Assembly (NCBI GenBank): GCA_026004195.1
Contig: BPIQ01000001.1
Coordinates: forward strand, 461,871 to 525,870
Origin: Candidatus Binatia bacterium
GTDB taxonomy: Bacteria; Desulfobacterota; Binatia; HRBIN30; BPIQ01
Length of the DNA stretch: 64,000 bases
Direction of reading: 5' to 3'
In this document: in pieces, positions 1 to 14,687 of the stretch
Position numbering within the stretch: position 1 is the stretch's first letter
Layout: each line of letters opens with the position of its first letter
Translations under genes and position numbers: made by a program
Notes under the pieces: generated by a model
What the model saw: only the letters and a program-made list of their open reading frames with translations
Database searches by the model: none
What the model was told of the DNA's origin: nothing

Positions 1-2026
1 TCACGTTGCGGATGACCCCGTACACCCACTTGGCGTTGTTGATGAGGTTCACGTTCGTGAAGAGGATCGCCTTCGTCGGCGTCGGCATGTGGGTCTGGCC
101 CGTGAAGTTGCGGCGTCCGTACTTCGGCGTCTCGACGACGAGCGCCCGGTCTCCGTGGTTCCAGTAGGCCGGCTCCTCGTCCTTCGCATAGGGCTTGACC
201 TTCACCTCCTTGCCGTGGGCCTTCGGGTCGAGGTTCGGGTGGAAGGGGTCCTCCGCGACCCAGCCTTTGAAGCCCGGACCCGTCCAGGGCGAACCCTGGA
301 AGAGGGCGGCCTTGTAGTTCCCCGCCCACGTGTGGCACCCGGCTCCCGGCTTGCCGATGTTTCCCGTCAGCATCAGCGGCAGGTAGGCGGCCCGGTTCAT
401 TTCCGTGGCGTGGAACCAGTGGTTGATCCCTTCGCCCTGGTGGATGGCGACGGGCCGAATCGTGGCGATGTCCTCGACCAGCTGGAGAACGAGGTCCTTC
501 GGGGCTTGCGTGATGTCGCACACCGTGTCCAGGTCGTAGTCCCGGAGGTGGACCTGGTAGAGGTTCCAGAGGGTCGCGACCTCGACTTCCTTCCCGTCCG
601 CGAGCCGCACCCGGAACCGACCGTCCAGGACCGGGTCGATACCTCTTTCCGCCAGGCGGCTTCCCACGTCGTCCCGGGTGACGGCAGCCGGCCGGTCGGT
701 CTTGGCGTCCCAGACGACGAAATCGCCGATCTTCTCGTGCTGTTCGGGAGTGAGTCCCTGGATTTTCCGCGAAGGCCCCTCCGGAGACAGCGGGCTCCTG
801 TAGTCGGGAAACACCTCGTGGGCGCGCAACCGCCGCAACGTGTCCAGGCGCACGAGAAGGGGGAAGTCGGTGAACTCCTTCACGAACTTTTCGTCGTACT
901 GCTTGCGTTCGACGAGAAGGCGCGTCACCCCGAGCCACAGCGCCGCGTCGGTACCCGGGCGAATCGGGATCCAGTAGTCGGCCTTCGTGGACGGGGGGCC
1001 GTACTCCGGCGTGATGACGACGATTTTCGCCCCGCGCTCCATGCACTCGATGAACCAGTGAGCGTCCGGCAGCTTGTTCTCGACGAGGTTCTTCCCGTCC
1101 ATGATGATGAGCTTGGTGAATCGGAGGTCGTTGAAGTCGCAATCCGAGGCCTGGAGCCCGTGGACCCAGGGGTGGCCGGGAGCCTGGTCGCCGTGCCACG
1201 TGTAGTTCGACCAGTTCCTTCCCCCGAGTGCCTTCTCGGGTGGAACCCCCCGAATCTGCGCATCGAGGAGCGCGAGGCAGTTGTTGAGCCGGTACATCCC
1301 GTACTTGCCGAGGACGCCGAGTAGCCCCATGCCTCCGCGCATCTTGATCGTACGGGTACCGGCCCCTTGCATCGCCGCGACCATTTCGGGCTGGTATCCC
1401 TGCTCGAGGAGTTTCCGTGCTCCTTCGTCGCCGCTGTAGCGGCGGGCGATGGCCACGATCGCCCGGGCGATCGCGTCGAAGGCGTCCTCCCAGGAGATCT
1501 GGACGAACTCGTCGTCCCCGCGCCTGTCGAAGTAGTACTTCGACTTGAGCTCGGGCGTGAGGTCGGGGCACCCGGCGTCCACCCACTCTTTCCACCGGCG
1601 CCGGACGATGGGATGCCGCAGCCGGTAGGGGCCGTAGATGACCCGATGGAACGTGTATCCCTTCGCGCACTGTCTCGGGTTCCAGTTCACCGTGGCGTGG
1701 TTGCCGTAGAGGTCGCTGTAGTCCTGGTAGTCGTAGGTGGAGCCGAGCCGCGTCACGATGCCGTTGCGCACGTACGCACGCACCCGGCAGGCGTGCGTGT
1801 CGTTCGGAGAACAAACCCAGTCGAAGTAGGAGTCGTAGCGGTACTGGTCCCGGTAGATCCGCTCCCAGTCCCGAGCCGGAGACCCGGCCAGAGGGTTGAC
1901 CCCGGGCCGCTCGGCCGCCAGCAGCCGCAACGGAAATTGCGTGGCGGCAGCCGCACCCGTGCCGACGCCGAGCCAGCGCAGAAACTCCCGGCGGGTGACT
2001 TCCGGACCGTTACCGAGCTTTCCCAT
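1..2026 (-). CDS. Molybdopterin oxidoreductase catalytic (alpha) subunit, type II DMSO-reductase family (NarG/EbdA/SerA-like); N-terminal ~675 aa, C-terminus lies beyond the window start
   Basis: Minus-strand translation from ATG at 2024-2026 (RBS GGAGGAG 4 nt upstream) stays open to base 1, so it has no in-window stop and is absent from the ORF track. Twin-arginine signal RREFLRWLGVGTGAAAA. NarG-like N-terminal FS0 region (WVCSPNDTHACRVRAYVRNGIV ... NWNPRQCAKGYTFHRVIYGPYRLRHPIVRRRW). The plus-strand ORF 89..1324 is its antisense shadow. Confidence 0.8.
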   Translation of the reverse strand, partial: MGKLGNGPEVTRREFLRWLGVGTGAAAATQFPLRLLAAERPGVNPLAGSPARDWERIYRDQYRYDSYFDWVCSPNDTHACRVRAYVRNGIVTRLGSTYDYQDYSDLYGNHATVNWNPRQCAKGYTFHRVIYGPYRLRHPIVRRRWKEWVDAGCPDLTPELKSKYYFDRRGDDEFVQISWEDAFDAIARAIVAIARRYSGDEGARKLLEQGYQPEMVAAMQGAGTRTIKMRGGMGLLGVLGKYGMYRLNNCLALLDAQIRGVPPEKALGGRNWSNYTWHGDQAPGHPWVHGLQASDCDFNDLRFTKLIIMDGKNLVENKLPDAHWFIECMERGAKIVVITPEYGPPSTKADYWIPIRPGTDAALWLGVTRLLVERKQYDEKFVKEFTDFPLLVRLDTLRRLRAHEVFPDYRSPLSPEGPSRKIQGLTPEQHEKIGDFVVWDAKTDRPAAVTRDDVGSRLAERGIDPVLDGRFRVRLADGKEVEVATLWNLYQVHLRDYDLDTVCDITQAPKDLVLQLVEDIATIRPVAIHQGEGINHWFHATEMNRAAYLPLMLTGNIGKPGAGCHTWAGNYKAALFQGSPWTGPGFKGWVAEDPFHPNLDPKAHGKEVKVKPYAKDEEPAYWNHGDRALVVETPKYGRRNFTGQTHMPTPTKAILFTNVNLINNAKWVYGVIRNV

Positions 2027-2041
2027 GGAACTCCTCCCGTC

Positions 2042-3625
2042 TCACTTCTCGAGCTCCAGTTCCTGCCAGATCGTGACCGACTTCTTTCCGTCGCGGTCTC
2101 CCTCGGCTCCGTCCCAGACCGCGAACGCGACGGACGTTTTCGAGCCAGGACGCAGCGACACCGCGTGTTTCCCCTTGCCGCGGAGTTCCCGGCGGAAGAG
2201 CACCCGGTACGACCCGACTCCGTACACGCCTTGCGCCTTCACCTGCTGCTCGGAACGAGATCGCGCCCGGAGGGTCCCGAAGCCCTCGGCCCAGAGGTCC
2301 TCCGCCGCGCTCGCAAAGGTCGGATCCGCGACGATGTTGCCTGCTCCCCAGGCGGTCACGAACGTCGGGTCGGAATCCAGCGTGAGCGCATGGCGGTGCG
2401 GCTGTTCGAGCGGGGACTTGAGGAAGTTCGGGTACGAGTCGATGCCAAGGTTCGGGTACACCTTCTCGAGGTCCTGGAACGTGACTTCGAGGTCGGCCTG
2501 GCGCTCCGCCTTCCACATCCAGATGTTGACGGGCTTTCCGGGCGATCCCATGGCGAAAAACGGCGGGTCCCGGTCGGTCGCGAACTGGATGGCGGCCGCG
2601 TCCCGGAAATCCTGGGGCCGCATGGCAGTCGAGTCGTGGGTGAGATCCGACCAGACGAGGAGGAAGGCAATGGACTTCCCGTCGTGGACCGCCCTTACGG
2701 TCACCGTTTCCGGACGGTTCGGCCTCCACCAGAGCGGCATGAGATGCAGGTCGACCTTGGGCGCCCTGGCCCAGAGCCCGTCGTCCGGGTGCTGTGGCAG
2801 GCGCTCGACCCGCTTGGCCAGGATCGTAAAGCGCCGCATCTCCGCTCGCTCGCGCTGCCTCGGGCTCGACAGCGAGAGGATGTAATGGACGAGATGCCAC
2901 GCGTCCTCGCCGTACGCCCAGTCGCTCGAAGGCATGGGCGTGCCCGGCATCCCGGCCACGATGCGGCGGTAAAGGGACTCGGGTTCCGGAGAGCCCTTGA
3001 AAACGCCCGACCAGAAATCCCGGGGCCGGATGGGGTATCCGTCCTCGTCGAACTGTTCTTCGGCGCCGTCGCCCCGCCCGGTGGCACCGTGACAGGACGC
3101 ACACGCCTCCGCGAAAAGCTCCTTGGCCCTGGCTTCCTCCGGGGCTCCGTACGCGGGCTCGTCGGGTACCAGAATGACGCCGGCTCCGCGCCCTCCTTCC
3201 TCGGCAGGGCGCGTCTCGGGAACGACGAAGGGCTTTTCCCGCAGCGACTTTACGTAGGCCACGAGCGCGCGCAGGGTCCCTTCCGGGAGATGCCCCCAGG
3301 AAGGCATGGCCGAGCCCGGCATCCCCCTGCGCAGCACCGAGAGGATGTCGTCGTCGGTGGGAACGCCCTCCCAGGTGGACACGATCCGGAAGCTTCCCGA
3401 GCGCAGGTTGCGTGGCTTGGGGTAGAGGAGATAAGCGGCCGGTCCGTCACCCTTCCCCTCCGGGCCGTGGCAGGAAACGCAGTGCCGCTCGTAAGCCGCT
3501 TTTCCTTCCGCCAGGAGGTCCGCTCGCTCGGCCGCGAACAGAGAGGGCCCGAGCAGGAGCACGAGGAGAACCACCCCGAGACTCGGCCAGATCATCGCTC
3601 TTTCCCCCGCTGCGTGACGGGCCAA
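2042..3625 (-). CDS. Diheme cytochrome c fused to an EB_dh (ethylbenzene-dehydrogenase gamma-like, heme-b) domain; putative electron-transfer subunit of the adjacent molybdoenzyme
   Basis: 527-aa ORF with a signal peptide (alternative start at MIWPSLGVVLLVLLL, 3595). Two CxxCH motifs (CVSCHG, CASCHG). C-terminal region resembles the gamma subunits of type II DMSOR enzymes (…WWRPNRPETVTVRAVHDGKSIAFLLVW…, …IWMWKA…). Ends 15 nt upstream of the alpha-subunit start. Confidence 0.72.
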   Translation of the reverse strand: MARHAAGERAMIWPSLGVVLLVLLLGPSLFAAERADLLAEGKAAYERHCVSCHGPEGKGDGPAAYLLYPKPRNLRSGSFRIVSTWEGVPTDDDILSVLRRGMPGSAMPSWGHLPEGTLRALVAYVKSLREKPFVVPETRPAEEGGRGAGVILVPDEPAYGAPEEARAKELFAEACASCHGATGRGDGAEEQFDEDGYPIRPRDFWSGVFKGSPEPESLYRRIVAGMPGTPMPSSDWAYGEDAWHLVHYILSLSSPRQRERAEMRRFTILAKRVERLPQHPDDGLWARAPKVDLHLMPLWWRPNRPETVTVRAVHDGKSIAFLLVWSDLTHDSTAMRPQDFRDAAAIQFATDRDPPFFAMGSPGKPVNIWMWKAERQADLEVTFQDLEKVYPNLGIDSYPNFLKSPLEQPHRHALTLDSDPTFVTAWGAGNIVADPTFASAAEDLWAEGFGTLRARSRSEQQVKAQGVYGVGSYRVLFRRELRGKGKHAVSLRPGSKTSVAFAVWDGAEGDRDGKKSVTIWQELELEK

Positions 3626-3698
3626 ACAAAAGGCGGGCCACGCGGACGGAGAGGGCAGGCCGTCGCCGAACCGAGGTCGATTCCCAGGTCCGGGAAAC

Positions 3699-5159
3699 TC
3701 ACGCCCCCGAAAGCCGCGCTCGTTTCTCGGTTACGGGAGTTGCCGAGCGTCGCGGCGGCTTGCGCCCGGCCCGGACAGCCAGGGCCCGGAGTTCGTCGAA
3801 GGAGTCGCGCACTGCGGCGACGAACTCGGGGTAGTCTTCCACCACGCCCGCGTCCACGTGAAATCCCCAGAAGAGTTCGCGGTGGTAAGTGAAAAGCGCG
3901 ATCCCCAGACCCTGTTTCTCGAACAGGGGGACCACAGGATAGGCCGAGCGAATCGGGTCGCCCAGAAAGTAAAGCGGAAACGTGGGCCCGGGCACGTTGG
4001 TGACGATCAGGTTGTAGGGCGGTCTCACGCTGGCAAGCCTTACCCAGAGGTCGAGAAGCGAGTCGGCCCATTCGCCCATCCCGCTCGCCAGCTCGACTCC
4101 GTGGGCTTCCCCCTTGGCCTTGAGCAGGGCGGTGAGCTGCCTCACACGGTCGTACCTCTCGCGGGGGTCACGCACGTCCAGGGGAAGCGAGGTCAGCCAT
4201 GCCGAGACCCGGTTCCCGACTATCCTCTCGGCCGGCGTCCTCAGGTTCACGGGCACGAGTGCTCGGAAATCCCTTCCCGAAACGGGCCATCTCTTGCGCC
4301 GGAAAAACCGGCGAACCGCTCCCGCCACCGTCGCGAGGGCCACGTCGTTGACGGTCCCGCCGAGCCGGTCCTTGACCAGCCGGACATCTTGGAGCGGGAC
4401 CGCCCACCACTCGAACCTCCGATCGGGCCCCACGTCTCCGTTGAGGGGAGTCGGCGGAGCGGGCGAGAGGACGATTCGGCCGAGCATTTCCGCCGTGGTG
4501 CCGACTCCCAGGGCGATTTCCCGGAAAAGCTTGCCGGGCTCTCGCGGCAGCGAAACGAGAGCGCGGGCACGAGGCCTTGCGCCCGGCGGAGTCTCCAGCG
4601 TGCGTCGGCCACGAGCAAACGCCAAGGGTCCACCACCGCTTTTCGCCGGGGGACCGACGAGCAGCTTTCCGAAGGACCCGCGACGGGCTCGAGGTCGAGG
4701 AGCGCCGAGACCAGATCCACGCCGCTCACTGCCGTCCACCATGGCGTGGTGCACCTTCGCCAGGAGCGCGTAGCCGCCGTCGCGAAGACCTTCGACGACC
4801 CAGAGTTCCCAGAGAGGCCGCCGGCGGTCGAGCGGCTGCGCGAAAAGCCTCGCCGAAAGCTCCTTGAGCTGCTCCTCGGTCCCCGGCCGGGGAAGGGCGA
4901 CGTGGTGGACGTGAGCTCGAATGTCGAAGCGGGGGTCTTCGACCCAGAAGGGGTGACCCGTGAGCGGCGCGCGAACGAGCCGCTGGCGGTAGCGAGGGAT
5001 CCGGTCGAGCCGGCTCTCCACGTGGGCACGGACCCGAGCGACGTCCACCCGCGGTTCCGGGCCCGAGGGTTCGACGACGAGCACGCCGCCGATGTTCATC
5101 GGGGTGTGGAGATGTTCGAATTCGAGGAAGGAGAAGTCTTGTGCGCCGAGCCTTTCCAT
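3699..5159 (-). CDS. Wax ester synthase / acyl-CoA:diacylglycerol acyltransferase (WS/DGAT family)
   Basis: 486-aa product starting MERLGAQDFSFLEFEHLHTPMNIGG, carrying the catalytic HHAMVDG (HHxxxDG) motif. The R/P-rich N-terminal extension of the 845-aa tracked ORF is rejected; the true ATG at 5157-5159 has GGAGGA upstream and overlaps the upstream gene stop (TGATG). Confidence 0.85.
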   Translation of the reverse strand: MERLGAQDFSFLEFEHLHTPMNIGGVLVVEPSGPEPRVDVARVRAHVESRLDRIPRYRQRLVRAPLTGHPFWVEDPRFDIRAHVHHVALPRPGTEEQLKELSARLFAQPLDRRRPLWELWVVEGLRDGGYALLAKVHHAMVDGSERRGSGLGAPRPRARRGSFGKLLVGPPAKSGGGPLAFARGRRTLETPPGARPRARALVSLPREPGKLFREIALGVGTTAEMLGRIVLSPAPPTPLNGDVGPDRRFEWWAVPLQDVRLVKDRLGGTVNDVALATVAGAVRRFFRRKRWPVSGRDFRALVPVNLRTPAERIVGNRVSAWLTSLPLDVRDPRERYDRVRQLTALLKAKGEAHGVELASGMGEWADSLLDLWVRLASVRPPYNLIVTNVPGPTFPLYFLGDPIRSAYPVVPLFEKQGLGIALFTYHRELFWGFHVDAGVVEDYPEFVAAVRDSFDELRALAVRAGRKPPRRSATPVTEKRARLSGA

Positions 5160-6031
5160 CAGCGTCCTCCTTTTCGCGCACCGGGCCCTCCTCCGTGCCC
5201 CGCACCCTGCCCGGCCGGTCCCCGTTCGTCGCCCACGTAGCGACTGAACACGATGCCCCGGCGGCGCTCGAGCGTGTCGTCGATCAGATCCTGCAGGGCG
5301 CGACGTACCTCCTCGTTGTAGCGATCCACCGTCCTCTGGTCCCGGGCAGCACGGGCACCGCCCCGCAGGCGGATCGGCGGTCCGAACCTCACGTAAATCT
5401 TCACGGGCAGGGGGAACGGGAAGGCCACGACGGGGAAAAAGGGCACGCGCAACAGCCTGGCCAGAGGCGAAAGGTTGGCGAGCAGCACGTGAGCCTCTTC
5501 CGCTCCTACGACGGCCATCGGGACGATGGGCGCACCTGCACGGAGGGCAACCTTGATGTATCCCCCGTGCCCGGGGGCGAAACCCTTGTGGGGTAACACG
5601 CGGTAGGGGTGTTTCCAGTAAGGCCGGGTCATGTCGAGGGCCCCGCCGGGCATGACGAGCAGGATGTTTCCTTCGCGCAGAAGTTCGACGGCCACGTCGC
5701 GGTCGCCCACCACGGCACCCCGCCTGCGGAGGAAATCGTACAAGGGGCCGAGCTTTCCCCAGAACTGGTCCCCCACCGCTCGCGCGAGCCTCCCGGTGCA
5801 GCGTTCGATGGCCACGAGCGCCAGGGCGGCGTCGTACGGCATCACGCCCCCGTGGCAACCCACCACCATGCACCGCCCCCGGGGGAGGTTCTCGCAGCCC
5901 AGGACCTCGAACCGGAAGTAGCGACCGATCGTTTCCCGGACGAGCCGCAACCAGAATCGCGTCCCTTCGGGGTCGAACTCCGGGTTCGCCGACCGGCCAC
6001 GTCGCGAGACGCTCTTCGTTGCCCCTCTCAC
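5159..6031 (-). CDS. DGAT2/MGAT-like acyltransferase (LPLAT superfamily)
   Basis: Only the C-terminal ~290 aa of the 658-aa tracked ORF look protein-like. The VVGCHGGVMPYDAALA and LLVMPGGALD…GFAPGHGGYIKVALRAGAPIVPMAVVGAEE blocks resemble the HPHG and downstream motifs of DGAT2-type acyltransferases. Proposed GTG start at 6029-6031 overlaps the ACAD stop (GTGA). Confidence 0.55.
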   Translation of the reverse strand: MRGATKSVSRRGRSANPEFDPEGTRFWLRLVRETIGRYFRFEVLGCENLPRGRCMVVGCHGGVMPYDAALALVAIERCTGRLARAVGDQFWGKLGPLYDFLRRRGAVVGDRDVAVELLREGNILLVMPGGALDMTRPYWKHPYRVLPHKGFAPGHGGYIKVALRAGAPIVPMAVVGAEEAHVLLANLSPLARLLRVPFFPVVAFPFPLPVKIYVRFGPPIRLRGGARAARDQRTVDRYNEEVRRALQDLIDDTLERRRGIVFSRYVGDERGPAGQGAGHGGGPGARKGGR

Positions 6032-7212
6032 GGCGAAAGTCCCAGGGAGCGAGCGATCGTCCTTCGTTGCATTTCCGAGGTGCCTTCCCAGATGGTGCCG
6101 ACCCGGGCATCGCGCAAGTACCGCTCGACGGGAAATTCCGTCGTGTAACCGTAGCCGCCGTGGATCTGGAGCGCTTCGTTGGCGATGCGGACGGAGGCCT
6201 CGCTCGCGAAAAGCTTCGCCATCGAAACTCTCGCACCCGCCTTTTCCCCTCGGTCGAAGGCCCGTGCGGCCGAAAACACCAGGAGCTCCGCCGCCTCGAG
6301 CTCGAGGGCCATGTCGGCGAGCTTGAAGCCTATGGCCTGGTGGTCTCCGATGGCCTTTCCGAACGCCTTGCGCACCTTCGCGTACCCGAGCGCCGCCTCG
6401 AACGCCGCGGCCGCGATCCCGAGAGACAGCGCTGCCACGTAGAGGCGACTTCGCTCGAGGACGCGGAGAAGGCCGAGGAAATTCCCCCTGTTCCCCCCGA
6501 GACGGTTTTCGGCCGGCACGAAGCAGTCGTCCAGGACGATCTCGCCGGTCTCGGAAGCCCGCATGCCGAGTTTTTCGATCCGCCGGGAGATCCGGAACCC
6601 CGGCTCCTGCGGGCGCACGAGGAAAAGCGCGATCCCCGCCGCCCGCTCCGGGCCGGGCCGGCGGGCAAAAGAGTCGAGGACGGCCGCGACGAGAAAAAGG
6701 TCCGCCACCGGGGCGTTGGTCACGAAGGTCTTCGTCCCGCGAAGGACGAACCCCTCTCGGGCGGGCGTCGCCACGGTGCGCATCGCCACGACGTCGGAGC
6801 CGGCCTCGGGTTCGGTCAGCGCAATGGCGGCCATGTGCTCGCCGTCCATGAGCGGTGGAGCCAGACGGTCGAACTGCTCCCTCGTGCCCAGGTCGGCGAG
6901 GAGCGAAGGACCGAGTACCGACGGAAGGACGGACACGGCAAAGGAACCGGAGACCCGGCCGATTTCCCTGGCGATCTCGCACTGCAGGACGAGGCCGCCT
7001 CCGAGTCCTCCGAGCTCTTCCGGCACGCCCAACCGGAAGATGCCGAGCTCGGCCATGGGTCGGAGAATCCGCTCGCGAGGAAAACGCTCGAGCGCCTCCG
7101 AACGTGCGACGAGCGGAGCCAGTCTTTCCTCGCAAAACGTCCGGAGAGTCCGGCGAAAGATGTCGATTTCGTCCACCGGCCGCCCCCCTTTTCTACGATC
7201 GAGGGTTACCAC
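6028..7212 (-). CDS. Acyl-CoA dehydrogenase
   Basis: 394-aa ORF with the canonical ACAD fold across its length (…ALTEPEAGSDV…, …GGYGYTTEFPVERYLRDARV…, …TIWEGTSEMQRRTIARSL). Confidence 0.9.
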   Translation of the reverse strand: MVTLDRRKGGRPVDEIDIFRRTLRTFCEERLAPLVARSEALERFPRERILRPMAELGIFRLGVPEELGGLGGGLVLQCEIAREIGRVSGSFAVSVLPSVLGPSLLADLGTREQFDRLAPPLMDGEHMAAIALTEPEAGSDVVAMRTVATPAREGFVLRGTKTFVTNAPVADLFLVAAVLDSFARRPGPERAAGIALFLVRPQEPGFRISRRIEKLGMRASETGEIVLDDCFVPAENRLGGNRGNFLGLLRVLERSRLYVAALSLGIAAAAFEAALGYAKVRKAFGKAIGDHQAIGFKLADMALELEAAELLVFSAARAFDRGEKAGARVSMAKLFASEASVRIANEALQIHGGYGYTTEFPVERYLRDARVGTIWEGTSEMQRRTIARSLGLSP

Positions 7213-7334: not shown

Positions 7335-7985
7335 GTGGAGCGCATCCTCGTCTTCGGCACCCATCCCGACGACGCCGAGATCGGTGCCGGCGGTACCATC
7401 GCCAGCTTCGCTCGCCGCGGCTACCCGGTGCTCATCGTGAACTTCCGGATCCCTGCCGGAAACGGCGACGCCTCCGAGGCCGAACGCGAGCGAAGGCGAA
7501 AGGAAGGGGAGAGGGCGGCCGGAATCCTCGGGGCGCAACTGTGTTCCTTCGGTCTGCGGCGAGAGGAAATCCGCCCCGACGCTCGGCTCGTCGGCACCCT
7601 CGACCGGCTCCTCCAGGAATTCCGGCCGACACAGGTCTACACGCACTGGGTCGGCGACAGCCACCCGGAGCACGTGGCCACGACGCGCGCGGTGCTCGCC
7701 GCGACGCGCCGGAACAGCTGCTCCGTTTACATGTACGAAGCGACGATACCGGGCGGAATCACCGAGCGGGCGTTTCGCCCCCAGCGGTTCGTCGACATCT
7801 CGGACACGATCGAGTGCAAGATCCGCAGTCTCGAGTCCTACGAAACCCAGCTCGAGGTCTACGGCCCTGGCTGGATCGCTGCCGTTCGCGGTAGAGCAGC
7901 GGAACGCGGATTCCAGGTCGGCTGCGCTTACGCCGAGGCCTTCGAGGTCGTCAAAGAAATCGTGCGCCCGGAGCCCCGAGCATGA
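7335..7985 (+). CDS. PIG-L / LmbE-family N-acetylglucosaminyl deacetylase
   Basis: Motif RILVFGTHPDDAEIGAGGTIA followed by HPEH. Chosen GTG start at 7335 follows the 122-bp divergent spacer after the ACAD start (7212); the first 160 codons of tracked ORF 6855..7985 are antisense of ACAD and rejected. Stop overlaps the E1alpha start (ATGA). Confidence 0.72.
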   Translation: MERILVFGTHPDDAEIGAGGTIASFARRGYPVLIVNFRIPAGNGDASEAERERRRKEGERAAGILGAQLCSFGLRREEIRPDARLVGTLDRLLQEFRPTQVYTHWVGDSHPEHVATTRAVLAATRRNSCSVYMYEATIPGGITERAFRPQRFVDISDTIECKIRSLESYETQLEVYGPGWIAAVRGRAAERGFQVGCAYAEAFEVVKEIVRPEPRA

Positions 7986-8962
7986 CCGACCCGTCGCCCC
8001 GCGAATGCCGGCAGTGGCTCTTCCGGATGTGGCTCATCCGGCTCTTCGAGGAGAAAGTCCTGCGGCTCGTCTCCGAAGGGATCATCCGAGGCACGACGCA
8101 TCCCTACGTGGGACAGGAGGCCGTCGCCGTGGGGGCGTGTTCCGTCCTCGAGCCTTCCGATTGCACGGTGAGCACCCACCGGGGACACGGCCATCTCCTC
8201 GCCAAAGGCGGGTCGCCGAAAAAGCTCATGGCCGAACTTTTCGGCAAAGTCACGGGATACGGAGGCGGTCGGGGAGGCACGCAACACGTGGCCGATTTTT
8301 CCGTCGGCCACCTGGGGTCGTTCGGCATCACGGGAGGGGGAATCCCCCTCGGCACCGGAGCTGCGCTGGCCATGCGGATGCGGCGTCGCAAGAGCATCGT
8401 GGTCGTCTTTTTCGGCGACGGAGCCACCAACCAGGGTGTCTTTCACGAGTCGCTCAACCTGGCTGCACTCTGGCGCCTGCCGGTCGTCTACCTCTGCGAG
8501 AACAACCTCTACGCCATGTCCACGCACGTGCGCGAAGCCTGCGCGACCGAAGACCTCGCCCGCCGGGCCCTGGCCTACGGAATCCCGGGTGTGCGGGTCG
8601 ACGGCATGGACGTCCGGGCCGTCGCGGAACACGTCGGCGAGGCCGCCGAAAGGGCCCGAAGAGGGCAGGGGCCCACACTGCTCGAATGTCTCACCTACCG
8701 GTTCCTCGGCCACTCGAAGAGCGACCAGAGGGTCTACCGCACGCGGGAGGAGGAAGAGGCGTGGCGGAAGAGGGACCCGATCGTCCTGTTCTCGCGCTGG
8801 TGTACGGAGACGCAGCGGCTTCGCGAGGAAGACGTCGAGGCGGTCCGGCAGGAGGCTCTCGCCCGGGTCGACGAAGCCGTCGCCTTCGCCCGAGAGAGCC
8901 CCTTCCCGGCACCCGAGAGCGCCGGAGAAGGGGTCTTCACGCCCGACCCATGGCCGAACTGA
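7982..8962 (+). CDS. 2-oxoacid dehydrogenase E1 component, alpha subunit (TPP-dependent; PdhA/AcoA-like)
   Basis: 326-aa ORF: …YVGQEAVAVG…, TPP motif GDGATNQGVFHESLNLAALW…PVVYLCENNLYAMST, …YRFLGHS…. Confidence 0.9.
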   Translation: MTDPSPRECRQWLFRMWLIRLFEEKVLRLVSEGIIRGTTHPYVGQEAVAVGACSVLEPSDCTVSTHRGHGHLLAKGGSPKKLMAELFGKVTGYGGGRGGTQHVADFSVGHLGSFGITGGGIPLGTGAALAMRMRRRKSIVVVFFGDGATNQGVFHESLNLAALWRLPVVYLCENNLYAMSTHVREACATEDLARRALAYGIPGVRVDGMDVRAVAEHVGEAAERARRGQGPTLLECLTYRFLGHSKSDQRVYRTREEEEAWRKRDPIVLFSRWCTETQRLREEDVEAVRQEALARVDEAVAFARESPFPAPESAGEGVFTPDPWPN

Positions 8963-9930
8963 CGTACGCCGCCGCCATCCGAGAGACGCTCCGCCGCGAG
9001 ATGCGGCGCGACCCGGACGTTTTTCTTCTCGGCGAGGACATCGGCGTCTACGGCGGAGCGTTCGGAGTCACGAAGGGGCTCCTGGACGAGTTCGGACCCG
9101 AACGCGTCCGTTCGACTCCGATTTCGGAAGCGGCGCTGGTGGGCGTCGCTACCGGGGCCGCGCTTCTGGGCCTGCGGCCCGTGGTCGAGATCATGTTCAT
9201 GGACTTCCTCACGCTGGCCATGGACCAGCTCCTCAACCACGCGACCAAGTTCCGTTACGTCTACGGCCCGCAGGCCAGGGTGCCGCTGGTCCTGCGCACT
9301 CCGGCCGGCGGAGGGCGCTCGTACGGGGCGACCCACTCCCAGAGCCTGGAAGCCTGGTTCCTCCACGCACCGGGCCTCAAGGTCGCGACACCCGCCACGC
9401 CGGCGGACGCCGCGAAACTCCTCCGCACTGCGATCCGCGACGACAACCCCGTGCTCTTCGTCGAGCACAAACTCCTGTACGCCACGACGGGAGAAGTCCC
9501 GGAAGATCCCGAGCCGGAACCTTTCGGCCGAGCGGCGATCCTCCGCGAAGGCAGGGACGTGACGCTCGTGGCCTATTCTCACGGCACCCTGCTCGCTCTC
9601 GAGGCTGCACGGGAGCTCTCCGGCGAGGGAATCGAAGCGGAAGTGATCGACCTGCGCACGCTCGTGCCGCTCGACACCGTCACGGTCTGCGACTCGGTCC
9701 GGAAAACCGGGCGCCTCGTCACGGTGGAGGAGGGAGCGTACACCGGAGGGGTCGGTGCGGAAATCGTCGCGCGTGTTTGCGAAGAAGCCTACGAGTACCT
9801 CGACGCTCCCGTGCGCAGGGTGGCCGCGCTCGACGTGCCGATCCCGTTCAGCCCGGTCCTCGAACGTGCCGTGCTGCCGCAGGCGGGGGACATCGCCCGC
9901 ACGGTGCGAGAGGTCCTGCGCCCGGCCTGA
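8950..9930 (+). CDS. 2-oxoacid dehydrogenase E1 component, beta subunit
   Basis: ATG at 8950 (MAELTYAAAIRETLRREM…). …RVRSTPISEAALVGVATGAALLGLRPVVEIMFMDF… is typical of PdhB/AcoB. Overlaps the E1alpha 3' end by 13 nt. The upstream part of tracked ORF 8005..9930 is an out-of-frame shadow. Confidence 0.9.
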   Translation: MAELTYAAAIRETLRREMRRDPDVFLLGEDIGVYGGAFGVTKGLLDEFGPERVRSTPISEAALVGVATGAALLGLRPVVEIMFMDFLTLAMDQLLNHATKFRYVYGPQARVPLVLRTPAGGGRSYGATHSQSLEAWFLHAPGLKVATPATPADAAKLLRTAIRDDNPVLFVEHKLLYATTGEVPEDPEPEPFGRAAILREGRDVTLVAYSHGTLLALEAARELSGEGIEAEVIDLRTLVPLDTVTVCDSVRKTGRLVTVEEGAYTGGVGAEIVARVCEEAYEYLDAPVRRVAALDVPIPFSPVLERAVLPQAGDIARTVREVLRPA

Positions 9931-9943
9931 CCCCCCCTCGACC

Positions 9944-11533
9944 ATGGAAGCCGTCTACCTACCCGTGCTCGGAGCGAACATGACCCACGCCACGGTGCGA
10001 CGGTGGTACAAGCAGGAGGGCGAAACCGTAGCCCCGGGTGACCTTCTCGTGGAGGTCGAGACCGACAAGGTGAACGTGGACATCGAAGCCGAGACGGGGG
10101 GCGTGCTCCGCAAAATCGTGGCTCCGGAAGGCCGACGCGTCCCGGTCCTTTCGATCCTCGCCTTCGTGGGTGAAAAAGACGAACCCGTTCCCCCGCCCGA
10201 CGCCTGGCCGAAAAAAGCCCTCCCCGAAGAGATCTGCGGAGAACCGGCCGTGACCGGGCGCGCCGAAAGAGGAACTCCCGGGCGAAGGTCCTTGGGCCCG
10301 GAGCCCGACCGATACCCGGCAAGTCCCGCCGCCCGTCGGCTCGCCCGCGAGCTCGGCGTCTCCCTCGAGGGGCTCCGAGGCAGTGGCCCCCGGGGGGAAA
10401 TCACACGGGAGGACGTCCTCCGGGCCCGCGGTGCGGGAGAGCTGGACCCTGGTTTCCTCGACCTCCTCCGAAGGTACCCCGAACGCTTTCGCGACCTTCC
10501 GTCCGAGGCGAAAGTGGAACTGTACCGCAGGCACGGAGCCGCGATCGGGGAGGGGGTTCGCATCGAGCAGGGCACGCTCGTTCTCGCCAGGGAAATCCGG
10601 ATCGGCGGAGGGACGGTCCTCGGACCGGAGAGCCACTTCGAGTGCGAGAAGCTCGAGCTCGGGCGTCTGGTGGCTTTCGGGCGGGGTACGAAACTCGAGT
10701 GCCGGGAAGCGAGGGTAGGGGACGCGCTCTGGTCGAAAGATCGAGTGACCATCGGAGGGGGAGGTCGGAACGAGCCCGAAGCCCGGCTCGAGATCGGCGA
10801 CGCCTGTTTTCTCGGGGACGGCGCGTACCTCAACCCGGGGCTTCCCATCCGCCTCGGCGACGAGGTTTGTATCGGGGCCGGTGCCATGCTCTTCACCCAC
10901 AGCCACTGGCAGTCGATCCTCCGGGGCTACGCGTCCGTCTTCGCGCCGATCGAGATCGGGGACCACGTTTTCGTCGGGAACAACGCCTTCGTGTTTCCCG
11001 GCGTGCGGATCGGCAGCGGCGCGACCGTGCTCGTCCAGTCGTTCGTCGCCCTCGACGTCCCGGAACGCGTGCTCGTCGGGGGAGTGCCGGCTCGCGTCAT
11101 CCGCGAGATTCGCCCCCTCACGCGAGAGGAGCGCATCGCCGAGTTCTCGCGCAGGCTGCCCGAGCTCGTCCGGCGCCTGGAACGCCTGGGATGGCCGGTC
11201 GCGCAGGAACGAACCGGGCAAGGTACGTGGATGCGGCTCGGCCCGAACGCGGCCGTAGGCTTCTTCCCCGATAGCGTCCCGCGTATCGAGAACGACGGGC
11301 GAGTCGTCCTCCTCGTGTTCGGCGCGGCCACACCCGAAGGATGCACCGTATTCGACCTCGAGGCGGGTCGCGTCGTGGGGCCGCAGGACGAGCTTTCCGA
11401 CGAAGTGCGGGAGTTCTGCCGCAGGCTCGGGATTCGTTTCCGGCCCTTCGCCTGGCGCTATCGCGTGGGCCACTTCGAAGGAGACCGCTTCGTCCGGCGG
11501 GAGTTCTCAGGCTCGGGGCCGAAAGCGCGGTAG
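9944..11533 (+). CDS. Fusion protein: lipoyl-attachment domain, peripheral-subunit-binding (E3/E1-binding) domain, left-handed beta-helix hexapeptide-repeat acyltransferase, and a C-terminal ~130-aa domain of unknown function (E2 replacement)
   Basis: ATG at 9944, 14 nt after the E1beta stop. Lipoyl domain with lipoyl-lysine motif (LLVEVETDKVNVDIEAE). PSBD (ASPAARRLARELGVSLEGLRGSGPRGEITREDV). Hexapeptide repeats (IGDHVFVGNNAFVFPGVRIGSGATVLV; IGGGTVLGPES; LGDEVCIGAGAMLFTHSH). No CAT-fold E2 catalytic domain. Confidence 0.8.
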   Translation: MEAVYLPVLGANMTHATVRRWYKQEGETVAPGDLLVEVETDKVNVDIEAETGGVLRKIVAPEGRRVPVLSILAFVGEKDEPVPPPDAWPKKALPEEICGEPAVTGRAERGTPGRRSLGPEPDRYPASPAARRLARELGVSLEGLRGSGPRGEITREDVLRARGAGELDPGFLDLLRRYPERFRDLPSEAKVELYRRHGAAIGEGVRIEQGTLVLAREIRIGGGTVLGPESHFECEKLELGRLVAFGRGTKLECREARVGDALWSKDRVTIGGGGRNEPEARLEIGDACFLGDGAYLNPGLPIRLGDEVCIGAGAMLFTHSHWQSILRGYASVFAPIEIGDHVFVGNNAFVFPGVRIGSGATVLVQSFVALDVPERVLVGGVPARVIREIRPLTREERIAEFSRRLPELVRRLERLGWPVAQERTGQGTWMRLGPNAAVGFFPDSVPRIENDGRVVLLVFGAATPEGCTVFDLEAGRVVGPQDELSDEVREFCRRLGIRFRPFAWRYRVGHFEGDRFVRREFSGSGPKAR

Positions 11534-12451
11534 GACCTCGCGGGCGAAGCGTTCGAGGACGTCGAGGTTGAACGGCGTGAGCGTCAGGATGAAATGCGTC
11601 ACGCCGACGTCGAGGAACGCACGGATCTGCCGTTCCACTTCGTCGGGGTTCCCGAGGAGCATCCACTTCCGGGCCTCCGCTTCCGGGAGACCCTGGTAGG
11701 CTGCGTAGCCTTGCACGAGAGCCTCGGCCTCCGCCGCGTCGTCCGTGATCGCGGCGGGCACGAGAACGGACTTCTCCAGGGCATCGGCGTCCCGGCCCTC
11801 GCGGCGGCAGAGCTCCGCGAGGAGATCGATTTTCCGCCGGAACACCTCCGGCGAGCCGAACGACGACCAGTGGTCGGCGTGTCGTGCGACCACGGGCAGA
11901 AGCTTCTTTTCTCCGGCTCCCGCCACGACGATCGGCGGGTGGGGCTTCTGCCACGGCTTGGGCTCGTGGATCGCCTTGTCGAGGCGGTAGTACTTCCCCT
12001 CGAAGGAAGCTTCCCGCTCGGTCCAGAGCCGCCGGATCACGTGCAGCGCTTCGTCGAGCCGCTCGCACCGTTCCCCCGGAGTCCCGAACGGGAGCCCGAA
12101 CATCCGATGTTCGGGCTCGTACCAGCCCGCACCGATGCCGAACTCGAGCCGCCCCCCGCTGATCGTGTCCACCGTGGTGGCGATCTTCGCCAGGATGGCC
12201 GGGTGACGGTACGTGTTGCCGGTCACGAGCGCCCCGATTCGGATCCTTTTCGTGTGCACGGCAAGAGCCGCAAGGCAGCTCCAGCCCTCCAGGGTCGGGT
12301 CGAAAGGGTCCATCATGACGGCGACGAAGTGGTCGTACGTCCAGGCCGTGTCGTATCCGAGCTCCTCCGCGCGCTGCCAGAGTTCGACGATCTCCTTCCA
12401 GCTCGCGAACTGCTGGCCTGTCTGGATTCCGAACCGAACCCGCCGTTCCAT
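11507..12451 (-). CDS. LLM-class (luciferase-like) flavin/F420-dependent oxidoreductase
   Basis: 314-aa product MERRVRFGIQTGQQ… with …DTAWTYDHF… and …GGRLEFGIGAGW…. ATG at 12449-12451 overlaps the upstream stop (TGATG). The N-terminal R-rich part of the tracked 605-aa ORF is rejected. Converges on and overlaps the 3' end of 9944..11533 by 27 nt. Confidence 0.8.
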   Translation of the reverse strand: MERRVRFGIQTGQQFASWKEIVELWQRAEELGYDTAWTYDHFVAVMMDPFDPTLEGWSCLAALAVHTKRIRIGALVTGNTYRHPAILAKIATTVDTISGGRLEFGIGAGWYEPEHRMFGLPFGTPGERCERLDEALHVIRRLWTEREASFEGKYYRLDKAIHEPKPWQKPHPPIVVAGAGEKKLLPVVARHADHWSSFGSPEVFRRKIDLLAELCRREGRDADALEKSVLVPAAITDDAAEAEALVQGYAAYQGLPEAEARKWMLLGNPDEVERQIRAFLDVGVTHFILTLTPFNLDVLERFAREVLPRFRPRA

Positions 12452-13458
12452 CAGCACCTCCCGACGGCTTGCGTGATCCAATCGACGAGAAGCGGGAAGA
12501 CCTCCTCCCGCACTCGGTGCCCGAAAACGAGATCCACGTGTCCGTAGTCCGCGGAGAACCCGGCGTCCTTCGAGAAAACCACGAACTCCTTTTCCGGACT
12601 TCCGAGAAGCTCGAAGCCCCGGCCGACGGCCTCGACCGTGGCAAGACGGTCCGCGGCGCCGGCGCAAACCAGGAACGGAAGCGCAACGCGACGAAGTCCC
12701 GCCCGGTAGTCGAGGGTTCCGTCCGCGGAGGCGAACCTTCCGGTCATGGACCAATGGGCGAGTTGCCGCAGCTTGCCCCGGGAGACGTTCGTGAGGGCTT
12801 TTCTCAGAGCCTCTCCGGCGGCGTCCAGGTCCGTGTTGGCGGGATTCATCCCGATCTCCACGGCACGCGTCCAGCCGACCAGACGCCACAGCGCGCCGAG
12901 GACCTGCCGCTGCGGGACGCGACTTCCGATGGGAAGGGAGAGGAAAAACTGGCCCAGGTAGCGCGCGGCTTCCGAAGCGACCGGGGGGAAGACGACGGGC
13001 GAGGCGAGTGTCACCCCGCCGAGCGGCTTCGGACCCTCTTCGCCGGCGGCCGAGAGGTAGGCGTAGAGAAGCATGCCTCCCATGCTGTGCCCCACCCAGA
13101 CCATCCTCTCGTGTCCGACTTCTCCGCGGACGAAAGAAAGAACCGCGGGAACGTCGACCAGGGCCAGGTCGTCGAATGTCCACCAGTCCGGCGACCGGCA
13201 TTGGCCGCTCGGATAACTCGCGCCCCGGCCGCGAAGCTCGACGACCCAGCTGTCGAGCCCGAAGGAGGCGAAGAACCTCGCGAGGGAGTATCGAGCGTCG
13301 AAGTCCACGAAAAAGCGGTTGCAACCGTAGCCGGGGCAGACGAGAACGGTCGGGGCACCCGGAACCGGGTAGCGGTGGAGAGCGAGCCTCCAGCCGTCGT
13401 GCGTCGCCGCGAAGTACGTCGTGGGTTCCCGGGCCATCTCGTTCGAGCGATCGACCAT
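12451..13458 (-). CDS. Alpha/beta-fold hydrolase
   Basis: Nucleophile elbow VGHSMGG. Start placed at ATG 13458 (MVDRSNEMAREP…) so it does not overlap the divergent dGTPase start; ATG 13437 is an alternative. Confidence 0.65.
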   Translation of the reverse strand: MVDRSNEMAREPTTYFAATHDGWRLALHRYPVPGAPTVLVCPGYGCNRFFVDFDARYSLARFFASFGLDSWVVELRGRGASYPSGQCRSPDWWTFDDLALVDVPAVLSFVRGEVGHERMVWVGHSMGGMLLYAYLSAAGEEGPKPLGGVTLASPVVFPPVASEAARYLGQFFLSLPIGSRVPQRQVLGALWRLVGWTRAVEIGMNPANTDLDAAGEALRKALTNVSRGKLRQLAHWSMTGRFASADGTLDYRAGLRRVALPFLVCAGAADRLATVEAVGRGFELLGSPEKEFVVFSKDAGFSADYGHVDLVFGHRVREEVFPLLVDWITQAVGRC

Positions 13459-13541
13459 CGCGTTTTCCACGACTTCGCGCAAGAGGTGCGCCTTGCCGGG
13501 CGAAGAGCGGGTCGCTAAGAAAGCGCGGAGACGCAAGCTCG

Positions 13542-14687
13542 ATGAAGCACGCCGGCCTGGACTTCGAGGAGCGCGTCCTCGCACCCTACGCGGCGCGCAG
13601 CGCCCGCTCGCGGGGAAGGGTACATCCGGAGTGCGAGCATCCTTTTCGTTCGGCCTTCCAGCGGGACCGCGATCGGATCATCCACAGCTCCGCCTTCCGC
13701 CGTCTCGAGTACAAAACGCAGGTCTTCCTCAACCACGAGGGTGACTACTACCGGACCCGCCTCACCCACACGATGGAAGCCGCGCAGATCAGCCGCACGA
13801 TCGCACGCGCGCTCGGTCTGAACGAAGACCTGGCCGAAGCGGTGGCGCTCGCTCACGACCTGGGCCACACTCCCTTCGGACACGCGGGCGAGCGCGTGCT
13901 GCACGAGTGCATGCTCCCGTACGGGGGATTCGAGCACAACGCGCAGAGTCTTCGGATCGTCGAGAAACTCGAGCGGCGGTACCCCGGGTTTCCGGGGCTG
14001 AACCTCACCTTCGAGGTTCGCGAGGGTATCGTGAAGCACTCGCCCCCGTACGACCGTCCCCTGGCCCGCGATTTCGAGCCCGGCCTCGCTCCGGCTCTCG
14101 AGGCCCAGATCGTCGACCTGGCCGACGAAATCGCCTACACCGCTCACGACATCGACGACGGCCTCCAGTCCGGGATGCTCGACGCCGGGGACCTCCTCGG
14201 AGTGGAGCTCTGGCGGGAAAGCGCGGCGCTCGTCTGGGCCTCCCACGTCCAGGATCCCGCCGTGACCCGCTACCAGGCCATCCGCCACCTGATCGATCGC
14301 CTGGTGACGGACCTCGTAGGCAACGTCCGCGAAACTCTCGAGCGAAACGGCATCCGCTCCTACGAGGACGTCCGCCGTTTCGGAAAGCCTCTGGCCGCTT
14401 TCCGCGAGCCCCTACGCGAGAAGTTCTCGGAACTCAAGGCGTTTCTCTTCGAACATCTCTACCGGCATCCTCGTGTCGTGCGGATGACACGGAAGGCCCA
14501 GCGCGTGGTACGGGAGCTTTTCGAGGAATACATGGCCGAGCCCCGCCAGCTTCCCGAGCACGTGTTCCGAAGGGCCGAATCCGAAGAATCGTTGCCCAGG
14601 GTCGTGGCGGATTACATTGCCGGTATGACGGACCGTTTTGCCCTCGAAGAGCACCGAAAGCTCTTCGACCCGTCCGCACGCGTCTAG
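13542..14687 (+). CDS. dgt: Deoxyguanosinetriphosphate triphosphohydrolase-like HD-domain protein
   Basis: ATG at 13542 (MKHAGLDFEER…). HD motif …AHDLGHTPFGHAGE… and …IVDLADEIAYTAHDIDDG… The 178 codons upstream in tracked ORF 13008..14687 are shadow. Confidence 0.85.
   Translation: MKHAGLDFEERVLAPYAARSARSRGRVHPECEHPFRSAFQRDRDRIIHSSAFRRLEYKTQVFLNHEGDYYRTRLTHTMEAAQISRTIARALGLNEDLAEAVALAHDLGHTPFGHAGERVLHECMLPYGGFEHNAQSLRIVEKLERRYPGFPGLNLTFEVREGIVKHSPPYDRPLARDFEPGLAPALEAQIVDLADEIAYTAHDIDDGLQSGMLDAGDLLGVELWRESAALVWASHVQDPAVTRYQAIRHLIDRLVTDLVGNVRETLERNGIRSYEDVRRFGKPLAAFREPLREKFSELKAFLFEHLYRHPRVVRMTRKAQRVVRELFEEYMAEPRQLPEHVFRRAESEESLPRVVADYIAGMTDRFALEEHRKLFDPSARV

Follow-up and report, generated by a model that had tools for sequence, protein, structure and literature searches.

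The gene at positions 9944 to 11533 on the plus strand of a 64,000-nucleotide stretch of Candidatus Binatia bacterium DNA (assembly GCA_026004195.1, contig BPIQ01000001.1, positions 461,871 to 525,870; "the window" below) encodes a 529-amino-acid (aa) protein, which is an analogue of the E2 component of 2-oxo acid dehydrogenase complexes with a swapped catalytic core. The protein starts like an E2, with a lipoyl domain, a flexible linker and a peripheral subunit-binding domain (PSBD), and continues with a left-handed beta-helix (LbH) acyltransferase domain and a C-terminal domain (CTD) that matches no known family. It is classed as an E2 analogue with an exchanged core because the LbH domain is the sole component able to unload the lipoyl arm. 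Judging from sequence, predicted structure and gene neighbourhood, we put the chances at about even that in this E2 variant the LbH site receives from the lipoyl arm an acyl group derived from a 2-oxo acid and transfers it directly to a carbohydrate.

The gene and the parts of its product are the following (PDH, pyruvate dehydrogenase; pLDDT, predicted local distance difference test score; pTM, predicted template modelling score):

9944 to 11533, plus strand: gene for the lipoyl-LbH-CTD protein, 529 aa, in the order lipoyl domain, linker, PSBD, pre-LbH segment, LbH domain, CTD
9944 to 10177, plus strand: lipoyl domain (residues 1-78), matched by Pfam Biotin_lipoyl, model pLDDT 88-97, Foldseek matches to PDH E2 lipoyl domains
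10178 to 10318, plus strand: flexible Pro/Ala/Glu-rich linker (residues 79-125), pLDDT <50 at residues 97-121, homologue identity 0.24 with many indels
10319 to 10420, plus strand: PSBD, or E3/E1-binding domain (residues 126-159), Pfam E3_binding 2.3e-15, homologue identity 0.65
10436 to 10552, plus strand: pre-LbH segment (residues 165-203), conserved in the alignments and situated at the N-terminus of the LbH domain, consensus LDPxFLxxLRRDxxAFRxLSSExKxxLYRxHGAxIG
10553 to 11107, plus strand: LbH acyltransferase domain (residues 204-388), maltose/galactoside/WcaF-like by Pfam Hexapep, PDB sequence matches and NCBIfam WcaF
11108 to 11530, plus strand: CTD of no known family (residues 389-529), AlphaFold2 pLDDT 90.2, pTM 0.85, no profile or Foldseek match
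11345 to 11470, plus strand: conserved Arg-rich core of the CTD (residues 468-509), TVFDLxxxRVxGxQDxLSDEVREFCRRxGIRFRPFAWRYxxG

The open reading frame runs from an ATG at 9944 to a stop codon at 11531-11533, and its 529-aa translation agrees with the sequence quoted in an earlier, sequence-only reading of this DNA. In the protein Pfam recognises Biotin_lipoyl (PF00364, residues 4-72, 4.5e-14), E3_binding (PF02817, over the whole of the PSBD) and Hexapep (residues ~335-362, 7.7e-11, with both PF00132 and PF14602 matched). The CAT-like catalytic domain of E2 proteins, 2-oxoacid_dh (PF00198), has no Pfam match in the 529 aa, the NCBIfam equivalog models for E2 align to residues 1-170 only (56-88 bits against cutoffs of 378-722), and a canonical E2 used in tblastn finds the lipoyl and PSBD part alone. 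An identical protein is deposited as a hypothetical protein in a Candidatus Binatia metagenome-assembled genome (MAG; KatS3mg076). The same full-length architecture is shared by ~95 homologues with 45-60% identity, which the databases name "hypothetical", "E3 binding domain-containing" or "isoleucine patch superfamily". Averaged over 80 homologues, the lipoyl domain has an identity of 0.62, the PSBD and the LbH domain 0.65 each, the whole CTD 0.48, the CTD core (residues 453-509) 0.67 and the inter-domain linker 0.24.

The putative lipoyl-lysine is Lys42 (codon 10067-10069) in the motif VETDKV, and this ETDK lysine is kept in 86 of 88 aligned sequences. Compared with the PDB by Foldseek, the full-length model retrieves almost exclusively lipoyl or biotinyl carrier domains, together with E2 models that align via the lipoyl/PSBD part. 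The single-domain matches of lowest E-value among the solved chains are PDH E2 lipoyl domains (root mean square deviation 1.1-1.4 A, 44-46% identity); biotin carboxyl carrier domains superpose about equally well, at an identity of only ~25%. A biotin carrier was rejected because the protein has the ETDK motif and a PSBD, is encoded beside E1 and shows more sequence identity to lipoyl domains; lipoylation is supported as the likely fate of the Lys42 arm, with biotinylation disfavoured.

The gene is the last of an operon, in which it is preceded by the following genes:

7335 to 7985, plus strand: PIG-L/LmbE-family de-N-acetylase, first operon gene, Pfam PIG-L 9.8e-20, GTG start at 7335, stop overlapping the ATG of E1 alpha
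7982 to 8962, plus strand: 2-oxo acid dehydrogenase E1 alpha, thiamine diphosphate-dependent, PDH-like, Pfam E1_dh 5.3e-87
8950 to 9930, plus strand: E1 beta, Pfam Transket_pyr and Transketolase_C, ATG at 8950, 13-nt overlap with the end of E1 alpha

The coding ends overlap or nearly abut throughout the order PIG-L deacetylase, E1 alpha, E1 beta and lipoyl-LbH-CTD gene, and 13 nt separate the E1 beta stop from the ATG at 9944. The closest solved structure to E1 alpha is human PDH E1 alpha (5e-64), and its score with TIGR03182 (PDH_E1_alph_y) is slightly under the cutoff (358.6 bits, cutoff 393.85); E1 beta exceeds the cutoff of NF006667 (386 bits, cutoff 321). The PIG-L protein shows a weak likeness to BshB1 (95 bits, cutoff 182). 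The 64-kb window and 13 related loci were searched by tblastn for a canonical E2 catalytic domain and, with an E. coli Lpd sequence as query, for an E3; neither was detected.

The LbH domain resembles the maltose, galactoside and WcaF O-acetyltransferases (1OCX, 1KRR, 3ECT), which are the best sequence matches of residues ~280-390 and share with it the hexapeptide coils, a TxxH loop and a GGxPAxxI coil. In searches of PDB sequences the leading entries are 3ect (5e-17), 1ocx (3e-14) and 6ag8 (~1e-14), and 1kqa is also matched; in the model, residues 212-356 form short beta strands throughout. The NCBIfam scores of the same region all fall under their cutoffs (WcaF 68.9 against 192, Maa 50.5 against 314, LacA 46.7 against 347 bits). 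The C-terminal GGVPAxVIR coil, which is typical of maltose and galactoside acetyltransferases, is conserved. The pre-LbH segment is retained in two relatives that have no lipoyl domain, P0171 and P0174. These acetyltransferases use free acetyl-CoA and, unlike the 529-aa protein, are only ~180-200 aa long and devoid of lipoyl domain, PSBD and CTD. The fused lipoyl domain and the adjoining E1 genes suggest an acyl donor other than free acetyl-CoA.

A second difference concerns the catalytic loop, TH(319)SH(321)WQS. His319 (codon 10898-10900) is invariant in 101 of 101 sequences; His321 (codon 10904-10906) is found in 94 of the 101 and is replaced by A, T or I in distant members. HMMER alignments place the catalytic His of maltose acetyltransferase, and likewise that of 3ect, under His321, so that the invariant His lies two residues upstream of the aligned catalytic one. 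The two stand two positions apart in an extended loop; either could serve as the base.

The sequence-only reading had recognised the lipoyl domain, the LbH domain and a C-terminal domain of no familiar kind, all of which stand, and had overlooked the E3-binding domain and the operon. Its suggestion that the last domain could determine acceptor specificity or bring about oligomerisation is plausible. Its preference for lipoylation over biotinylation, drawn from the ETDKV context, is supported by the conservation of Lys42, by PDH E2 lipoyl domains as the closest folds, by the PSBD that follows and by the E1 alpha and E1 beta genes upstream. The THSH motif, which it had taken for the active site, does contain an invariant His (His319), but the known catalytic residue aligns with the second, slightly less conserved one. 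Of what was overlooked, the operon context matters more, and it presents the protein as an E2-like subunit with a swapped catalytic core.

Set beside the E2 components of the pyruvate, 2-oxoglutarate and branched-chain 2-oxo acid dehydrogenases, the protein has in common with them the lipoyl domain with its ETDK lysine, the flexible linker, the PSBD, the position of the gene straight after E1 alpha and E1 beta, and a catalytic domain that is expected to be trimeric. It differs from them in the absence of the CAT fold (PF00198), in place of which it carries the LbH domain and the new CTD, in the lack of an E3 gene nearby and in operon partners that modify carbohydrates. To our knowledge, the textbook complexes all unload the lipoyl arm onto CoA by means of a CAT-fold E2 core, the known exception being the hydrolase-fold AcoC. 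The AcoC-type E2 of acetoin dehydrogenase (NF011457) is similar insofar as a lipoyl domain is joined to a catalytic domain other than CAT and the partner is a heterodimeric E1 alpha/beta. Yet that catalytic domain is an alpha/beta hydrolase, whereas here it is an LbH fold; the 529-aa protein has no hydrolase-fold Pfam match, and NF011457 covers its residues 2-170 only (76 bits against a cutoff of 307). What is new here, as far as sequences and models can tell, is an E2 with a different predicted catalytic fold and a new accessory domain.

The family extends well beyond the window. A scan of metagenome contigs with the CTD motif [LC]R[RK]RGIRFxP yielded 145 confirmed loci, 80 of which were fetched, and the family also spans dozens of clusters at 50% identity. 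In 26 of 26 metagenome loci with enough sequence, the gene immediately preceding the LbH-CTD gene is E1 beta. The Binatia-like group A has the PSBD; a PIG-L gene stands before E1 alpha in all eight metagenome loci that leave room for it, and PIG-L is likewise found upstream in L001, L002, L007 and L008. Downstream, group-A loci often contain a PlsC-type acyltransferase, an alpha/beta hydrolase and an F420 luciferase-like oxidoreductase, the same three genes that flank the operon of the window. Group B lacks the PSBD, its CTD is ~35-40% identical, and its operon consists of an S1-family carbohydrate sulfatase, E1 alpha, E1 beta and the lipoyl-LbH-CTD gene, often followed by a Pyr_redox_3 flavoprotein. 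The S1 sulfatase is the first gene in 8/8 group-B loci with room (L166:3638-10304, L123, L133, L141, L142, L146, L158 and L162). That it might be a sulfamidase is kept as speculation, given that a weak SGSH_C Pfam match alone points this way and the closest solved enzymes are O-sulfatases.

More remote members are found in clusters for surface sugars and polysaccharides. L005 (36% identity) and L087 are nonulosonic-acid clusters with NeuB, a CMP-/NDP-sugar transferase, a hydrolysing 2-epimerase (Epimerase_2), a PglD-like acetyltransferase, DegT and PIG-L, and L005 has three DegT aminotransferases; L003 is a WbpB/E/D-like polysaccharide cluster. In L131 (2-1096, plus strand) a lipoyl domain is fused to a full-length amino-sugar N-acetyltransferase of the NeuD/PglD/VioB family (TIGR03570, 164.2 bits, cutoff 160.8). 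This gene, inside which the contig begins, lies directly upstream of a lipoyl-LbH-CTD gene (1234-2751), PIG-L and a Wzx-type flippase. The Pseudomonadota MAG locus L016 (3378-7313) encodes a fused E1 alpha-beta protein (657 aa), then a 348-aa lipoyl-LbH protein without CTD, then a PF01522/DUF3473 polysaccharide deacetylase. Lipoyl fusions thus occur on three LbH subtypes, namely WcaF-like with CTD, WcaF-like without CTD and NeuD/PglD-like.

The converse arrangement is seen in two Firmicutes loci, L006:8308-13564 and L089:4374-11626, which code for the lipoyl-less LbH-CTD proteins P0096 and P0098 and resemble spore-coat glycan loci. The neighbours include YutH- and CotH/HipA_2-like kinases, a YheC/D ATP-grasp protein, PIG-L and two GT4 glycosyltransferases; the CTD of P0096 and P0098 has a diverged motif with a 10-residue insertion. 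The presence of a lipoyl-less LbH-CTD protein beside PIG-L and GT4 genes suggests that the LbH-CTD unit is itself an acceptor-directed glycan acyltransferase.

The nonulosonic-acid cluster of L087, which is of the legionaminic-acid type, contains further genes. Homologues of LuxE (acyl-protein synthetase) and LuxC (acyl-CoA reductase) lie at 1558-3965 and immediately precede NeuB, E1 alpha, E1 beta and the lipoyl-LbH-CTD gene, and HisF/HisH-like genes are also part of the cluster.

Direct transfer to a carbohydrate is favoured because the module recurs beside enzymes that either remove a substituent (de-N-acetylase, polysaccharide deacetylase, sulfatase) or make an amine (aminotransferase), because the lipoyl domain is fused to three kinds of LbH protein, and because stand-alone LbH-CTD proteins occur in glycan loci. 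The proposed route would begin with a PDH-like E1 alpha/beta heterotetramer, which, given the identity of its domains and their place in the operon, is expected to decarboxylate pyruvate or a close analogue and to reductively acylate lipoyl-Lys42. The lipoyl arm would then swing on its flexible linker into the thiol-arm groove of a trimeric LbH domain that takes the place of the CAT-fold core, with the arm substituting for the pantetheine arm of an acyl-CoA. At the LbH site, the His319/His321 loop may pass the acyl group on to a carbohydrate acceptor, as the recurrent neighbourhoods suggest. This acceptor would have been freshly unmasked by the product of the first operon gene, which is PIG-L here and a sulfatase in the sister clade, or by an aminotransferase or polysaccharide deacetylase in remote relatives. 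Finally, the reduced arm would presumably be reoxidised by a housekeeping E3 recruited via the E3-binding domain, there being no E3 gene nearby.

The best-surviving alternative, which we nonetheless hold to be unlikely, is that the protein is a true E2 that arose by non-orthologous displacement. Its LbH domain would move the acyl group from dihydrolipoyl-Lys42 to CoA, and the acyl-CoA would be used by other enzymes, e.g., those of the PlsC or PglD type nearby. LbH enzymes of the maltose/galactoside/WcaF type normally bind CoA, and the dependence of this family on CoA together with the conserved GGVPAxVIR coil fits such a role, as do the PDH-like E1 subunits, the PSBD of classical E2 type and the separate acyltransferases in many loci. 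A precedent for an E2 without CAT fold exists in the AcoC-type lipoyl and alpha/beta-hydrolase proteins, of which NF011457 matches the lipoyl part only in the present case. However, the operon is tied to carbohydrate-modifying enzymes and not to central metabolism, and in the window and 13 related loci the module is unaccompanied by an E3 gene. In addition, the fusion of a lipoyl domain to a bona fide NeuD/PglD N-acetyltransferase in L131 is hard to explain if CoA is the sole acceptor, and the lipoyl-less LbH-CTD relatives in glycan loci imply an acceptor other than CoA.

The CTD is a new family of ~140 aa, which is confidently folded and missing from Pfam and from the solved structures searched. 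The AlphaFold2 model of the domain alone, built with 98 aligned sequences, consists of a 21-residue helix (394-414), six beta strands, a second helix (483-494) and a beta hairpin (509-518), and within the full-length model the domain has pLDDT values of 84-96. Its composition is normal, with a sequence entropy of 3.82 bits compared with 3.90 for the LbH domain. A disordered or low-complexity tail is ruled out by the pLDDT of 90 and the normal entropy, and a frameshift or gene-fusion artefact by the ~95 homologues with the full-length architecture. In a diverse alignment the N-terminal strands vary and the stretch FDL..G..D.LSDEvReFcRRRGIRFxPxxWRY is nearly invariant; the invariant or near-invariant residues are F470, D471, L472, G479, D482, S485, D486, R489, E490, R493, R494, G496, R498, F499, P501, W504, R505 and G509.

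When 1.84 billion representative proteins were searched exhaustively by HMMER for the CTD alone, 72 matches were obtained. Each complete protein examined among these has an LbH domain, of the subtype described here, before the CTD, and most also have an N-terminal lipoyl domain; complete lipoyl-less LbH-CTD proteins are P0171, P0174 and the Firmicute group P0096-98. Run as a profile against the protein database, the CTD alignment retrieved mainly fragments. Residues 389-529 match no Pfam family even at E<=10 and no NCBIfam model, and when a profile built from 34 diverse CTDs is compared with PDB sequences, designed helical repeats are the only matches. Foldseek comparison of the CTD model gave nothing significant against the PDB (best E 0.5, query-normalised template modelling (TM) score <=0.28) or against BFVD (best E 0.06, query-normalised TM <=0.42), so that membership in a known family is unsupported by any of these searches. 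A frataxin/CyaY-like fold was considered and dropped: the matches have the helix-sheet-helix order in common with the CTD but are weak (TM ~0.23 over 47-49 columns) and not significant. The sequence-only reading had held that this region lacks a known family, and profile-HMM and Foldseek searches of the kind it proposed leave that statement intact. It had also named a low-complexity or disordered, unconserved region as the contrary case, and the entropy, the pLDDT and the core identity of 0.67 speak against it.

The CTD is probably an Arg-rich accessory domain that binds a ligand, with the handle of the acceptor or the CoA nucleotide as candidates. Since the domain occurs in lipoyl-fused and lipoyl-less proteins alike, it would serve something common to both. 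Most of the invariant residues, on and after the second helix, are Arg, Asp, Glu, Ser or aromatic, a pattern that suggests a surface for binding a phosphate-bearing ligand and not a hydrophobic contact. In known LbH acyltransferases the C-terminal end of the beta-helix is the seat of the CoA nucleotide end or of the carrier protein (LpxA, LpxD). The position of the CTD at this end, its polar invariant face and its presence with and without a lipoyl domain together favour ligand binding. The corresponding step is the weakest of the proposed route: the Arg-rich face RxxxRRxGxRFxPxxWR would most likely bind the phosphate-bearing part of a ligand. Candidates are the handle of the acceptor, be it nucleotide or polyprenyl phosphate, and, in lipoyl-less relatives, the CoA nucleotide; the CTD would then be comparable to the extra domains of PglD or LpxD.

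Both of these comparisons have their limits. LpxA and LpxD are established cases of an LbH domain fed from the thiol arm of a carrier protein, and in both an additional domain follows the helix C-terminally. They are matched only through generic hexapeptide sequence, however, their C-terminal domains are all-helical in contrast to the alpha/beta CTD, and the carrier in the protein described here is a lipoyl domain fused in cis. The NeuD/PglD/VioB N-acetyltransferases likewise use an LbH domain, in their case to place an acyl group on the free amine of a nucleotide sugar, and they hold this acceptor with an additional alpha/beta domain (PglD_N). That accessory domain, however, is N-terminal and unrelated, and the 529-aa protein scores only 51.5 bits with TIGR03570 (cutoff 160.8).

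It is rather improbable, and a little more so than the transfer to CoA, that the CTD is a structural assembly module without ligand, which caps or bundles LbH trimers into a higher-order core or docks E1/E3 where the PSBD is missing. In the canonical 24- and 60-meric E2 cores of PDH, C-terminal residues make inter-trimer contacts. The CTD follows a flexible linker at the C-terminal end of the LbH domain and opens with a 21-residue helix, and the group-B proteins without PSBD keep both the CTD and the coupling to E1 alpha/beta, all of which would suit such a module. On the other hand, the lipoyl-less proteins P0171 and P0174 keep the CTD with the same invariant Arg-rich motif, and no E1 gene is present at the only locus read for them (L088, a 1.4-kb contig). 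The lipoyl-less Firmicute proteins P0096-98 also keep a diverged CTD, with no E1 genes nearby. Furthermore, the most conserved CTD residues are charged or polar (Arg, Asp, Glu, Ser) and do not form a hydrophobic interface, and lipoyl-LbH proteins without CTD still occur with E1.

Around the operon, the window contains three genes that recur at related loci:

5159 to 6022, minus strand: PlsC-type acyltransferase, Pfam Acyltransferase 3e-9
11507 to 12430, minus strand: F420-dependent luciferase-like oxidoreductase, Pfam Bac_luciferase 8e-58, TIGR03560 277 bits against a cutoff of 231
12451 to 13584, minus strand: alpha/beta hydrolase, Pfam Hydrolase_4 and Abhydrolase_1, in synteny in L008, L092, L094, L097 and L113

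The convergent luciferase-like gene overlaps the 3' end of the lipoyl-LbH-CTD gene by 27 nt (11507-11533, with both stop codons inside) and is syntenic with the operon in other Binatia loci. A PlsC gene lies directly downstream of the LbH-CTD gene in other Binatia loci (tblastn synteny in L002, L007 and L008) and is found in 10 of the 19 group-A metagenome loci with downstream room. That PlsC, the alpha/beta hydrolase and the F420 luciferase-like gene travel with the operon hints at a glycolipid or a lipid-linked acceptor.

In the window, the PlsC gene belongs to a divergent block of lipid type upstream of the operon (3702-7212, minus strand), which comprises a WS/DGAT wax-ester/diacylglycerol acyltransferase (3702-5150), PlsC itself and an acyl-CoA dehydrogenase (6028-7212). 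Beyond this block (2-3730, minus strand), a molybdopterin oxidoreductase gene that is cut by the end of the window adjoins a gene for a protein with two cytochrome c domains and EB_dh (ethylbenzene-dehydrogenase gamma-like); in L001 and L009, a 25%-identical molybdopterin enzyme is encoded directly upstream of PIG-L.

A catabolic module is very improbable. In it, an acetylated or sulfated amino sugar or glycan would be degraded by the LbH protein together with E1 alpha/beta and the deacetylase or sulfatase, and E1/E2 would oxidise the resulting 2-oxo acid. Sulfatases and deacetylases are typical of glycan catabolism, the group-B loci hold a major facilitator superfamily transporter and a flavoprotein without biosynthetic glycan genes, and an acyl-CoA dehydrogenase and an alpha/beta hydrolase lie in the Binatia neighbourhood, but remote members sit inside biosynthetic clusters (NeuB, CMP-sugar synthetase, DegT, Wzx flippase, glycosyltransferases), and a catabolic dehydrogenase has no evident need to swap its E2 core for a sugar-type acyltransferase.

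Several points weigh against direct acyl transfer to a carbohydrate and account for our guarded estimate. The E1 subunits resemble an ordinary pyruvate E1, and the acyl group might be plain acetyl, in which case a cycle of deacetylation and reacetylation looks futile unless the positions differ. Hydroxypyruvate (yielding glycolyl) or 2-oxobutyrate (yielding propionyl) would fit the logic of deacetylation and reacylation better, which is speculation. An E1-like and lipoyl E2-like system supplies the glycolyl unit in the biosynthesis of quinocarcin and naphthyridinomycin. CoA, the normal ligand of such LbH enzymes, could be the acceptor instead of a sugar. The conserved neighbours in Binatia are of lipid type (PlsC, alpha/beta hydrolase, WS/DGAT, acyl-CoA dehydrogenase) with no glycosyltransferase nearby, and the acceptor in Binatia may therefore be another molecule, such as a glycolipid. 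In group B, the partner enzyme is an S1 carbohydrate sulfatase of general type and not demonstrably a sulfamidase. The lipoyl-LbH proteins of L016 and L131 that have no CTD imply that this domain is not generally required for lipoyl-dependent transfer or for unloading of the arm. Finally, the stretch that joins the LbH domain and the CTD (residues 380-390) has a low pLDDT of ~51, and the placement of the CTD relative to the LbH domain in the model is tentative.

With these reservations, direct transfer to a carbohydrate may be extended to the family as a whole, at a confidence that is tentative and clearly below that for the protein itself. Lipoate would then be a biosynthetic acyl carrier for glycan tailoring: an acyl group made by E1 (acetyl, perhaps glycolyl or propionyl) would be moved without CoA by at least three LbH subtypes to the amines or hydroxyls of carbohydrates, and the CTD, as a new fold, would keep hold of the acceptor by its phosphate-bearing handle. 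Full-text literature searches retrieved no account of a lipoyl-hexapeptide fusion or of E1 and lipoyl genes in nonulosonic-acid clusters. Such genes go unmentioned in a paper on the Legionella lipopolysaccharide locus and in one on Tannerella nonulosonic acids (PMC5378307), the latter of which describes the genetic basis of N-acyl modifications as largely unknown.

The hexapeptide-core family is widespread and occurs in deacetylase, sulfatase, nonulosonic-acid and polysaccharide contexts. If the proposed transfer is correct, lipoate biochemistry reaches into carbohydrate modification, and the module would be a possible origin of the unusual N-acyl groups on bacterial sialic-acid-like sugars. 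As a glycan acyl carrier, lipoate would define a new class of E2 and a new way in which nonulosonic acids and other surface sugars acquire diverse N-acyl groups.

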